This document shows, in pieces, positions 1 to 1,735 of a stretch of DNA of 32,000 bases (position 1 is the first letter of the stretch; each line of letters opens with the position of its first letter). Made by a program: the position numbers and the translations under genes. Origin of the DNA: Candidatus Saccharimonadota bacterium (GTDB lineage: Bacteria > Bacteroidota > Bacteroidia > Cytophagales > Amoebophilaceae); NCBI RefSeq assembly GCF_003351905.1, contig NZ_CP022339.1:600001-632000 (forward strand). The letters are read 5' to 3'. Below the pieces are notes generated by a model. That model did no database searches, had not been told where the DNA came from, and saw only the letters and a list, made by a program, of their open reading frames with translations.

Positions 1-851
1 ATTAATGAAAGGTATTTAGACCTAGCAATCATTTTAAAACTTTTATATAACCCCAGGTGTAGTCTAGTGGTATGCCTGCCTTGTATCCTTTGGCCGCAGA
101 TGATATATTGTTCGATATACTTATGTAAAAGCAGCATGCAGAGGCATAGCGTGGCAATAACAATCATGAGTGTGGCTATTTTTGAGGCTGTTGCCACTGT
201 ATACCTACCTATGAAACGCAATAAAAAGTGATCAGCACGCGAAAAGTAGACCATGATACTGCCAGAGATAAGCAGGTTGGCTTGTCCAATCAAGTTGAAA
301 AAGAAGTAAAAGCGACCCGCTTCTTCTGTTGTCGTTATTTTGTTAGCCAACTGCCAATACAACAAGGTAAAGACAATCATAGGCCAAAGTTCACCTAACA
401 TATAGAAGAGTATTAAGGTCCATTTACCCCACATGATAAAAAACCATTTCAGATAGGGGTAAAGCCTAATGTAGGCATCCACCTTACAAGGATCAGGATG
501 CAAGAGCCCCTGGTAAGGGAATAAAAAAAAGCCGAATAAAAGAAAAAAAAAGAGAAAGAAGACGATAATGCCTCTAAAAATCTTTTCTGTGGTTACCCTA
601 TTACATAAGACCGTATAGACCACTACAAATAAAATTCCTGCGGGCATTTCAACAAATAGCTTAATAAAGCTCAATACTTCTGCCCCTATTAAGGTGACTA
701 CTAGACCATCTTTTATGCCACGGATTAAATTTTGATTCAGTAAGATAAGAAACATCAAGATAGCCATAGAAAAAAATTTTTGCAGTGCGTGTCCCTTAAT
801 AGGCCACTGCATAGGATGCCATTTTTTTAGTAAGGCTGTTACATGTTTCAT
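1..851 (-). CDS. ATP/ADP translocase / nucleotide transporter (NTT, TLC family). N-terminal ~283 codons only; the rest lies beyond the window start.
   Basis: Absent from the ORF track because it runs off the edge. My reverse-strand translation from the ATG (complement of 849-851) is open to position 1: MKHVTALLKKWHPMQWPIKGHALQKFFSMAILMFLILLNQNLIRGIKDGLVVTLIGAEVLSFIKLFVEMPAG...WPMIVFTLLYWQLANKITTTEEAGRFYFFFNLIGQ. This matches the rickettsial/chlamydial Tlc N-terminus (..LRSIKDSLVVTLIG.E.ISFLK..) and the W..AN.I...EAKRFY motif. Confidence 0.85.
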   Translation of the reverse strand, partial: MKHVTALLKKWHPMQWPIKGHALQKFFSMAILMFLILLNQNLIRGIKDGLVVTLIGAEVLSFIKLFVEMPAGILFVVVYTVLCNRVTTEKIFRGIIVFFLFFFLLFGFFLFPYQGLLHPDPCKVDAYIRLYPYLKWFFIMWGKWTLILFYMLGELWPMIVFTLLYWQLANKITTTEEAGRFYFFFNLIGQANLLISGSIMVYFSRADHFLLRFIGRYTVATASKIATLMIVIATLCLCMLLLHKYIEQYIICGQRIQGRHTTRLHLGLYKSFKMIARSKYLSL

Positions 852-976
852 AAAGTAAGTTTAAAAATTTCTTAAGGGTTACAATTGGTCCATGGTGTCA
901 TTCTTACATTAACACCATGTCTTGAACAGTTTAAGTTACTTAGCGCAGTACAAACCGAGTAGGTATATCTTGCCCT

Positions 977-1735
977 TTAAGCTTTTCCCAAGAAAAGCAT
1001 GACTAGGCTATGGGCAACAGAGTAGGGAACAATTTGCAAGATGCGCATGGTTAATCCATTAAAGATGGCAAGAAACTTCTTTTCTACTGTAATGTTATGT
1101 TTAAGTCGTCCTATCCAAGTCATAGGCACCTCTGAGCCACAATTTTGTGTGGCGATTAGATCAAATGGCATCGTTAAGGCAGATACAGCGATACCCAATA
1201 CCGTACTAACCATCATATTAATCCACACCCCACTGATATCCTTTGTAAATTCATATGCCAATATAGAAGCGGAGCCACTCAGTATATTCCTTAAAAAGAT
1301 CGGCGTTACAATATCACTCATCCTTTCTTTTCGTTTCATTAAAGCCCCTTTATTAGCAGCAATTTCTTTTGTTTCGCTATATATGGTTACGGCTGTTTCT
1401 ACCATTCCTGCTAAGAAGCACTCCCAGATAACCAGTAACGCAAAATTGCTTATCGCATAATAATCAGTAGAACAAAGGAAAAGCCACTGAGAAACTCCAA
1501 AGGCCAAAGCCGCTATAAACTGTCGAAGTGCATAAATATGTGCGCCGGAAAAAAATAATTTAAAATTTTTAGTACGTATGCACCTGGTCACAATAGAGGC
1601 ATAAGATTCGCCGGTTTCTTGGTAGACTACTTTTACAAACTGAGCAGGTGCCACTAAGTAGGCTACGACCATACAAGCGATACCATGTGCAAGTGGATCA
1701 AAAAAAAAGCGGTATAGCAGTGTGTTGTATTCCAT
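977..1735 (-). CDS. Mitochondrial carrier family (MCF/SLC25)-like membrane protein, three degenerate repeats
   Basis: 252-aa ORF. Three ~80-100 aa repeats each pair a helix plus a PX[DE]XX[KR]-like motif (APAQFVKVVYQ; IYSETKEIAAN; MPFDLIATQ) with an MCF-style second helix (FFSGAHIYALRQFIAALAFGVSQW; FLRNILSGSASILAYEFTKD; IFNGLTMRILQIVPYSVAHSLVM). It lies 125 bp upstream of the NTT gene on the same strand. Confidence 0.55.
   Translation of the reverse strand: MEYNTLLYRFFFDPLAHGIACMVVAYLVAPAQFVKVVYQETGESYASIVTRCIRTKNFKLFFSGAHIYALRQFIAALAFGVSQWLFLCSTDYYAISNFALLVIWECFLAGMVETAVTIYSETKEIAANKGALMKRKERMSDIVTPIFLRNILSGSASILAYEFTKDISGVWINMMVSTVLGIAVSALTMPFDLIATQNCGSEVPMTWIGRLKHNITVEKKFLAIFNGLTMRILQIVPYSVAHSLVMLFLGKA

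Follow-up and report, generated by a model that had tools for sequence, protein, structure and literature searches.

Members of the mitochondrial carrier family (MCF) have been described in intracellular bacteria. Dolezal et al. (2012) found that Neorickettsia sennetsu has two MCFs and Legionella several; one of the latter, LncP, they characterised as an ATP carrier that is secreted by Dot/Icm and acts in host mitochondria (PMC3252375). Brown et al. (2018) listed a core Cardinium 'mitochondrial carrier protein', cPpe 01095, as a candidate for horizontal gene transfer; it is 66-67% identical among strains, and its best outside match is a Neorickettsia protein (33%), followed by the eukaryotic carrier SCaMC-1 (PMC6232779). 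A 2025 review of Cardinium makes no mention of the carrier. Here, we analyse a gene for a short MCF-fold protein of 252 amino acids (aa), hereafter called the carrier, which occupies positions 977-1735 of the minus strand in a 32,000-nucleotide stretch of contig NZ_CP022339.1 (the window) and lies directly upstream of a gene for a TLC-type nucleotide transporter (NTT).

The identity pattern reported in 2018 matches that of the short-carrier family described below, and the existence of the gene is therefore not new. An earlier annotation of this DNA, made from the letters alone (the original prediction), had named LncP as the bacterial precedent; it is not the only one, since MCFs of Neorickettsia sennetsu and Legionella have been known since 2012 and the Cardinium gene has been listed since 2018. 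Because bacterial MCFs were known and the Cardinium carrier was already in print, the novelty is smaller than that annotation assumed. What is new is a short, gate-poor and hydrophobic subfamily shared by Amoebophilaceae and Rickettsiales-type symbionts, together with its NTT cassette in the Amoebophilaceae; the NTT linkage and the short architecture were in no paper found by our literature search.

A divergent mitochondrial carrier homolog in Cardinium

The open reading frame (ORF) call for the carrier runs from an ATG start to a stop codon at 977-979. The descriptive claims of the original prediction about this ORF were all correct: the length of 252 aa, the three motifs quoted, which we located at aa 30-35 (PAQFVK), 119-124 (YSETKE) and 190-195 (PFDLIA), and the NTT gene nearby. 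The closest protein is that of Candidatus Cardinium sp. TP (97% identity), and the window is part of a Cardinium genome (Amoebophilaceae, Bacteroidota). Each of the 17 loci examined, from genomes (closed Cardinium chromosomes among them) and metagenomes, has retained an intact carrier ORF of 251-259 aa (the length in locus L012, 255 aa, is our own ORF call), and the genes flanking it in these loci are bacterial. The dN/dS ratio of the carrier, determined pairwise for seven Cardinium orthologs and two more distant Amoebophilaceae loci with estimable dS, was 0.06-0.15, just as low as that of the NTT (0.08-0.16; the 283 available codons in seven Cardinium pairs), and the amino-acid identity of the carrier was at least that of the NTT in every pair compared. 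An ORF of 139 aa on the opposite strand (1041-1460, plus strand) was rejected as a chance ORF; the conservation pattern and the dN/dS fit the minus-strand frame.

The carrier matched the Pfam family Mito_carr (PF00153) with an E-value of 1.5e-9, and its score of 37.9 bits clears the curated cut-off (22.3). The match is thus significant, as had been predicted, but two stretches pass rather than the three expected from three repeats. No competing bacterial transporter family emerged in Pfam or NCBIfam, the NCBIfam scan of the ORF returning no family. When the 38 members of the wider family were scanned singly, 34 matched Mito_carr (best E-value 4.5e-14) and no other family recurred. Profile-profile comparison by hhalign of the carrier family with canonical carriers (four canonical-length database MCFs and bovine AAC1) gave a probability of 98.6% and an E-value of 5.5e-16 over 245 colinear columns, which span all three repeats.

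The predicted structure agrees with these results. AlphaFold2, run on the diverse alignment of 38 sequences, returned six long helices with a mean predicted local distance difference test score (pLDDT) of 92.1 and a predicted template modelling (TM) score of 0.88; with 23 close orthologs as input, the pLDDT was 73.7 and the Foldseek outcome was alike. In the Foldseek comparison with the PDB, the top 11 matches were all MCF-fold chains (probability 1.00, TM-score 0.54-0.73), among them UCP1, the yeast carriers AAC2 and AAC3 and carrier-fold subunits of Tetrahymena complex IV, and all later matches had a probability of 0.44 or less. The predicted topology is therefore six transmembrane helices in a 3x2 arrangement, and comparison with the ADP/ATP carrier fold is in agreement; together with the significant Mito_carr match and the lack of a rival family, it bears out the carrier assignment of the original prediction.

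At the level of plain sequence, the relationship is faint. The profile of the 23 orthologs found nothing significant among all PDB chains, the best match being an unrelated mouse protein of 132 aa (E-value 0.41), and the sole carrier-related match in the PDB sequence search was a MTCH2/UCP1 chimera with a non-significant E-value of 0.82. As the plain PDB sequence search gave nothing significant, the carrier is highly divergent, and its homology to the solved carriers is visible only at the profile-profile and fold level. A native bacterial transporter such as CysZ or YihY, both of which have been proposed elsewhere as distant carrier relatives (bioRxiv 10.64898/2026.03.31.715626), was rejected; Pfam returned Mito_carr alone. 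Four independent levels of support confirm that the carrier is a true relative of the mitochondrial carriers and not a chance resemblance. By its sequence and model, it appears to be a divergent protein of the MCF fold that is strongly conserved and functional.

Repeat 1 (aa 5-94; 1454-1723, minus strand), delimited by the best Pfam stretch (aa 15-80), the AlphaFold2 helices and hhalign, contains a first helix (H1) ending in P30-A-Q32-F-V-K35...Q39, a short matrix helix (aa 45-54) and a second helix (H2) with G64 and R71. Repeat 2 (aa 95-168; 1232-1453, minus strand), placed by colinear alignment with the canonical repeat 2, is shortened to about 74 aa; H3 ends in Y119-S-E121-T-K-E124-I-A-A-N128-K129-G130, and H4 carries R149-N150 and Y161-E162-x-x-K165. 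Repeat 3 (aa 169-252; 980-1231, minus strand), supported by the AlphaFold2 model, hhalign and the alignments, has H5 ending in P190-F-D192-L-I-A195-T-Q-N-C-G200, a matrix helix (aa 207-216) and H6 with G227, R231 and Q234. In the model, short matrix helices occur in repeats 1 and 3 only, and no helix is seen at aa 133-142 of repeat 2. Repeats 1 and 3 are related to each other (hhalign E-value 4e-5, 82 columns). Repeat 2 taken alone was not detectably related to repeats 1 and 3 by hhalign (E-values 0.034 and 0.12) and is recognised solely via the full-length alignment to canonical three-repeat carriers.

The short length and the replaced salt-bridge residues had both been noted in the original prediction, and both are correct and hold family-wide, the carrier being about 50 aa below canonical length. 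None of the three odd-numbered helices has a complete matrix-gate motif Px[DE]xx[KR]: Q32 replaces the acid in H1 (PAQFVK), Y119 replaces the proline and E124 the K/R base in H3 (YSETKE), and A195 replaces the K/R base in H5 (PFDLIA). Only one of the three possible salt bridges of the matrix gate, D192-K35, can form. The cytoplasmic motif [FY][DE]xx[KR] is found on H4 only (Y161-E162-F-T-K165); the corresponding stretches of H2 (..S-Q-W-L-F) and H6 (..A-H-S-L-V) have no motif. As these substitutions are conserved across orthologs, they are the normal state of the family and not a sign of decay, and with most gate motifs absent the protein is a carrier-fold homolog rather than a canonical gated SLC25 exchanger.

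Q39, Y45, N150 and D192 are invariant in the 38-sequence family, and E113, T114, I125 and K129 are at least 90% conserved. From the canonical alignment and the G+7 rule, we take R71 (at contact point I), R149, with the invariant N150 after it, and Q234 to be the symmetry-related cavity positions; R231 would lie one turn below Q234, as judged from the alignment and not from coordinates. The R-N pair at the second contact point differs from the G-[IVLM] pattern of adenine-nucleotide carriers.

The carrier-NTT cassette and the short-carrier family

The NTT gene enters the window with its 5' part only (positions 1-851, minus strand; 283 codons), the rest lying beyond the window edge. The fragment matched the Pfam family TLC (PF03219) with an E-value of 2.7e-72 over model positions 7-285 of 491, in line with the clear Tlc/NTT gene that had been predicted 125 bp downstream of the carrier on the same strand. 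It matched TIGR00769 with an E-value of 5e-57, below the cut-off because the gene is truncated; the NTT orthologs at the same position in L001-L003 are full length (501-521 aa).

The carrier lies directly upstream of a same-strand TLC gene in 15 distinct Amoebophilaceae loci, that is, the window and 14 others (L001/L015, L002, L003/L004/L017, L007, L008, L010-L014, L016 and L025-L027), across which its identity is 58-97%. The genes around the cassette vary: TamB/FtsA in one locus, the tape-measure gene of a contractile injection system (CIS) in another and MurC in a third. Given that the flanking genes differ, the pair is retained by selection and not by general synteny. The CIS tape-measure gene (PF19268; L002:1527-5693, minus strand) lies immediately upstream of the carrier, in divergent orientation, in a Cardinium metagenome-assembled genome (MAG); other loci are without it, and its neighbourhood is probably coincidental. 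In cEper1, a hypothetical protein encoded beside the NTT gene CAHE_0018, CAHE_0017, is expressed; it may be the ortholog of the carrier.

The two genes of the window are separated by a spacer of 125 bp (852-976, minus strand). Among the orthologous loci, several lineages have spacers of 8, 17, 18, 65 or 68-69 bp, and other lineages have spacers of 125-354 bp. With the adjacency conserved in 15 loci and gaps down to 8-18 bp, the co-expression with the NTT that the original prediction considered possible is strengthened. A scan of the window spacer found neither a T-run terminator nor a Bacteroidetes -7 motif. Sigma-70 promoter and intrinsic-terminator scans of positions 1-2600 gave sites not above those of shuffled sequence and none in the spacer, the sigma-70 consensus being of limited value for a Bacteroidota genome. 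Of 13 loci compared, 12 have no Bacteroidetes -7 pattern TAnnTTTG in the spacer, and 8 have one ahead of the carrier gene; over the whole window, the pattern occurs no more often than expected by chance. A pattern search placed a candidate Bacteroidetes-type -7 element, TATATTTG, at 1911-1918 (minus strand), about 180 nt upstream of the carrier ATG, where it overlaps a sigma-70-like match at 1941-1913. Four close Cardinium loci have the same octamer between -183 and -205, and this positional conservation is weak evidence for a promoter.

RNA folding identified a hairpin with a 10-bp stem (CATGGTGTTA...TGACACCATG) in the spacer at 891-919 (minus strand). The closest strain, L007, also has it, a T in the 5' stem arm being changed to C, and the 8-69-bp spacers of other strains are without it. 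The hairpin is probably not a terminator, because no T-run follows it, and it might serve in RNA processing or stability. On the other side of the carrier, about 690 bp without a convincing ORF (1736-2427) separate it from a divergent ankyrin gene; this region, which is long for a reduced genome, contains TATATTTG, and Rfam returned nothing for it.

The closest relatives of the carrier are 23 orthologs of 57-97% identity, all from Cardinium or Amoebophilaceae MAGs. An exhaustive profile search over 1.84 billion representatives gave 45 matches; a word-indexed protein search with the alignment of 38 sequences yielded at least 8000 candidates but hardly any further members. The full-length matches were 231-273 aa, and those with an E-value of 1e-10 or less were 240-273 aa; that band also held six shorter fragments and one repeat protein of 3717 aa that we judged spurious, and canonical-length carriers entered the search only from an E-value of 3e-8. 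The repeat protein, P0048, matched profile positions 36-73 (the repeat 1 loop and matrix helix) in 11 stretches (E-value 7e-18), and the same positions weakly matched a mouse hypothetical protein of 132 aa (PDB 1ivz_A). The similarity, to a repeated extracellular domain, is probably spurious and not carrier homology.

The family signature reads PxQF.K...Q; ET..T...E..EI..NK; RN; P.D...T..CG; G..[MI]R, and by both length and signature the window carrier belongs to this subfamily of about 250 aa from symbionts. Its wider members come from Candidatus Xenolissoclinum pacificiensis (two tandem genes), Candidatus Xenohaliotis californiensis, Anaplasmataceae bacterium AB001_6, a Rickettsiales bacterium and a Rickettsiales MAG, and others lie on metagenome contigs with large flanking ankyrin-repeat genes. 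Tandem paralogs occur in Ca. Xenolissoclinum pacificiensis (L018:3220-3954 and 3965-4717) and in a metagenomic genome of 1.69 Mb (L022:4235-4930 and 5001-5750). Such pairs echo the two MCFs of Neorickettsia sennetsu and suggest duplication with divergence of specificity. In the Rickettsiales MAG locus L019, the gene that directly follows the carrier, for CTP synthase, is broken into two ORFs (4861-5238 and 5365-6612), probably through a frameshift, a pseudogene or an assembly error.

In a rough neighbor-joining tree rooted with the five canonical carriers, the short family stood apart from these in 100 of 100 bootstraps. The Amoebophilaceae formed a single clade (100/100) with a marine-metagenome protein as its sister (93/100), and the pair was nested among Rickettsiales-type sequences. 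This tree, crude as it is, suggests transfer from symbiont to symbiont rather than direct capture from the present host. Of the proposal that the gene is a horizontally acquired eukaryote-type carrier, the kinship with the MCF thus stands, but a direct eukaryotic source is not supported, the nearest relatives being of Rickettsiales type.

Possible role of the carrier

With moderate confidence, we favour a model in which the carrier, resident in the inner membrane of the symbiont and expressed together with the NTT, transports a small anion and is loosely gated. This model draws on the conserved cassette, the slow evolution and hydrophobic helices of the carrier, and what is reported of Cardinium: it makes no nucleotides and few cofactors, depends on ATP and nucleotides imported via four NTTs, has an F-type ATPase, lacks a respiratory chain, and has no known secretion system (no type III or type IV) besides a contractile injection system resembling the antifeeding prophage (AFP) (Penz et al. 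2012; PMC3486910). The carrier gene would be transcribed jointly with the downstream NTT, and its product would be inserted co-translationally into the symbiont's own inner membrane, with both termini in the periplasm and the K/R-rich 'matrix-side' loops in the cytoplasm. Considering the conserved arginines at symmetry-related positions of the cavity, we propose an anionic substrate, a small solute that would pass through a cavity lined by R71, R149/N150 and R231/Q234. With one matrix salt bridge (D192-K35) and one cytoplasmic motif (Y161-E162..K165) left, the protein would probably work as a loosely gated uniporter or unidirectional carrier and not as a strict exchanger. In the Amoebophilaceae, it might balance what the ATP/ADP exchange of the NTT cannot, i.e. 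leftover phosphate, or the net adenylate or cofactor pool; as a guess at the substrate, for which operon logic and the conserved cavity arginines are the whole basis, this is tentative.

Several observations weigh against this model. R71 is not conserved outside the Amoebophilaceae, being replaced by M, L or another residue in Rickettsiales-type members. The longer spacers (125-354 bp) leave room for separate promoters. Some NTTs export phosphate along with ADP, and if this is so here, a separate phosphate route would be needless. In L005 (6001-6762) and L006 (2792-3553), which encode a protein 57% identical to the window carrier (P0021), no NTT adjoins the carrier gene, and an acetyltransferase gene follows it on the opposite strand; all other Amoebophilaceae-type loci have the cassette. 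The Rickettsiales-type loci examined had no NTT within the available flanks either, and the function of the family is therefore not strictly NTT-dependent. As to hydrophobicity, which in itself points towards residence in the bacterial membrane, the grand average of hydropathy was 0.41-0.97 in the 38 family members versus -0.20 to 0.30 in five canonical MCFs, and the mean Kyte-Doolittle value of the six best 19-aa windows was 1.77 versus 1.27, but this contrast involves five canonical carriers only and could in part be explained by shorter loops and A+T-rich genomes. The charge bias of the carrier (14 K and R residues on the three matrix-side loops versus 3 on the other side and the termini, counted outside the helices) also fits a resident protein, but it follows a positive-inside pattern that is common to all MCFs and so does not discriminate between a resident and a secreted protein.

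The alternative to residence is an LncP-like effector. The carrier would then be exported to the host mitochondrial inner membrane, or to another host membrane, and release ATP or a metabolite there, which the co-expressed NTT would import. Co-regulation with an ATP importer is physiologically sensible, weak gates suit unidirectional efflux, and all bacteria with short carriers are obligate intracellular; the Rickettsiales among them have a type IV secretion system. Moreover, LncP, the sole bacterial MCF with experimental data, is translocated by Dot/Icm to host mitochondria, where it moves ATP unidirectionally (PMC3252375). Cardinium, however, has no type III or type IV secretion system but only an AFP-like contractile one (PMC3486910), which is unlikely to deliver a membrane protein of six helices. 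Furthermore, the carrier shows the slow evolution of a housekeeping transporter, part of its repeat 2 is missing and no C-terminal extension can be seen. Its helices are far more hydrophobic than those of the canonical, post-translationally imported carriers, and very hydrophobic helices favour capture by the bacterial signal recognition particle/Sec pathway. We consider export of this kind unlikely. Between secretion to host organelles and insertion in the symbiont membrane, the two locations named in the original prediction, the evidence leans towards the resident protein without deciding the matter.

The carrier might also not transport at all, and instead support or regulate the NTT as its partner or act as a membrane insertase or scramblase-like protein, by analogy with MTCH2 and the carrier-fold subunits of Tetrahymena complex IV. 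Most of both gate networks has been lost and repeat 2 is cut short; the two top TM-scores (0.73 and 0.71) were to the Tetrahymena subunits, the chimera that was the only, non-significant carrier-related match in the PDB (E-value 0.82) contains MTCH2, and the gene is tightly linked to that of one membrane protein. Against this stand the conserved cavity residues (R149/N150, R231 and Q234, and E113/T114 on H3), which are as expected of a substrate path, the Rickettsiales and L005 members that have no adjoining NTT, and the tandem paralogs of Xenolissoclinum and L022, which look like diversification of substrate specificity. A non-transporting role is, in our judgement, distinctly unlikely.

A further alternative concerns the origin of the family. 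The short carriers might be a native prokaryotic branch of the carrier fold, of Rickettsiales lineage and related to the ancestor of the mitochondrial carriers, which reached the Amoebophilaceae by transfer between symbionts. The family is coherent, separate from the five canonical carriers and most diverse in Rickettsiales-type genomes, and no specific eukaryotic parent subfamily emerged from the profile search or the neighbor-joining tree. The patchy spread, the restriction to obligate intracellular bacteria, the truncated repeat 2 and a tree with five outgroup sequences favour the ordinary reading of a captured and then reduced eukaryotic gene, and we regard a native prokaryotic branch as very improbable. 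Finally, a spurious ORF, a decaying pseudogene or host contamination, as might be suspected from public records that annotate the carrier merely as 'hypothetical protein' and from several orthologs with only 'faint' Pfam matches, is to be dismissed on the conservation and selection data, namely the intact ORF among bacterial flanking genes in all 17 loci and the dN/dS of 0.06-0.15, and on the confident structure model.

If the model of a resident carrier is true, this would be the first mitochondrial-type carrier shown to work in a bacterial membrane, the characterised precedent, LncP, going to host mitochondria, and the 'energy parasitism' machinery of Cardinium would gain a second component. 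Cardinium is a widespread manipulator of arthropod reproduction and is not culturable; the carrier and NTT genes are small, and their expression in Escherichia coli or Lactococcus for transport assays is feasible. A family of about 250 aa that is nearly gateless would be a natural minimal carrier with which the dependence of SLC25 alternating access on salt-bridge networks can be tested. Shared as it is by Bacteroidota and Rickettsiales symbionts, the family would also document gene exchange between unrelated intracellular bacteria.

Other genes of the window and comparison with known carriers

The divergent gene beyond the region upstream of the carrier (2428-3441, plus strand) encodes an ankyrin-repeat protein of 337 aa with an N-terminal hydrophobic segment and a mucin-like stretch rich in Ser, Thr, Pro and Lys (...KKPSRKPSKKPSKKPYTTTTSTT...); it is likely a host-interaction protein. 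A second ankyrin protein, of 649 aa, is encoded at 9970-11919. Two tandem genes for DcuA/DcuB C4-dicarboxylate transporters lie at 7081-8223 and 8250-9551 (both minus strand); the upstream copy gave a strong match (E-value 7e-98), whereas the second, shorter copy matched far more weakly (E-value 4.8e-21) and may be diverging or decaying. An ORF with a PIN domain (VapC-like, E-value 4e-6) is preceded by an ORF of 69 aa without a family match (5301-5609 and 5675-5884, minus strand), and the two probably form a toxin-antitoxin pair; the PIN ORF has a GTG start, covers profile positions 34-110 only and may be N-terminally truncated or mis-started. A RelA/SpoT-family protein (23791-24918, plus strand) and a Ppx/GppA phosphatase (28228-29229, plus strand) are retained, so that the genome, though reduced, seems still to support (p)ppGpp metabolism. 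The window also contains two tRNA genes, at 23236-23306 and 23380-23463.

Compared by description, LncP resembles the Cardinium carrier in having the MCF fold, in belonging to an intracellular bacterium, in its presumed ultimate derivation from eukaryotes and in its link to the exploitation of host ATP. LncP is of canonical carrier length, whereas the Cardinium protein has 252 aa, a truncated repeat 2, degenerate gates and a linked NTT gene, in a bacterium reportedly without a type IV secretion system. LncP also differs in being a Dot/Icm substrate that assembles in host mitochondria, and it has been aligned with the mitochondrial ADP/ATP carrier (PMC3252375). The carriers of Neorickettsia are likened to the Cardinium protein here through the best-match report of Brown et al. 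(2018; PMC6232779).

The nearest likeness is to the carriers of Anaplasmataceae-like Rickettsiales (Xenolissoclinum, Xenohaliotis and AB001_6), which are 25-35% identical and fall into the same subfamily of about 250 aa. Common to both are PxQF[LV]K..Q on H1, ET..T...E..EI..NKG on H3, RN on H4 and PFD[LV]..T..CG on H5; the Rickettsiales carriers differ in having no adjoining NTT, in occurring often as tandem paralogs and in the replacement of R71. With canonical SLC25 members, such as the ADP/ATP carrier, UCP1 and the ATP-Mg/Pi carrier SCaMC, the Cardinium carrier shares the six-helix bundle, colinear profiles, the proline and glycine landmarks, the 'brace' position at Q39 and arginines at contact positions. 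It differs from them in being about 50 aa shorter, in a repeat 2 without a matrix helix, in more hydrophobic helices, and in having Px[DE]xx[KR] intact nowhere and [FY][DE]xx[KR] on H4 only.

In its combination of a carrier fold with degenerate signature motifs, the Cardinium carrier resembles MTCH2, the Tetrahymena complex IV subunits and the Legionella protein Lpg1137, whose middle repeat is likewise the most divergent (PMC5621508). These non-transporting proteins of the MCF fold, whose insertase, protease or respiratory-complex roles have no evident parallel in the short-carrier family, differ from it in that they act in eukaryotic membranes, whereas the Cardinium carrier keeps the arginines of its cavity.

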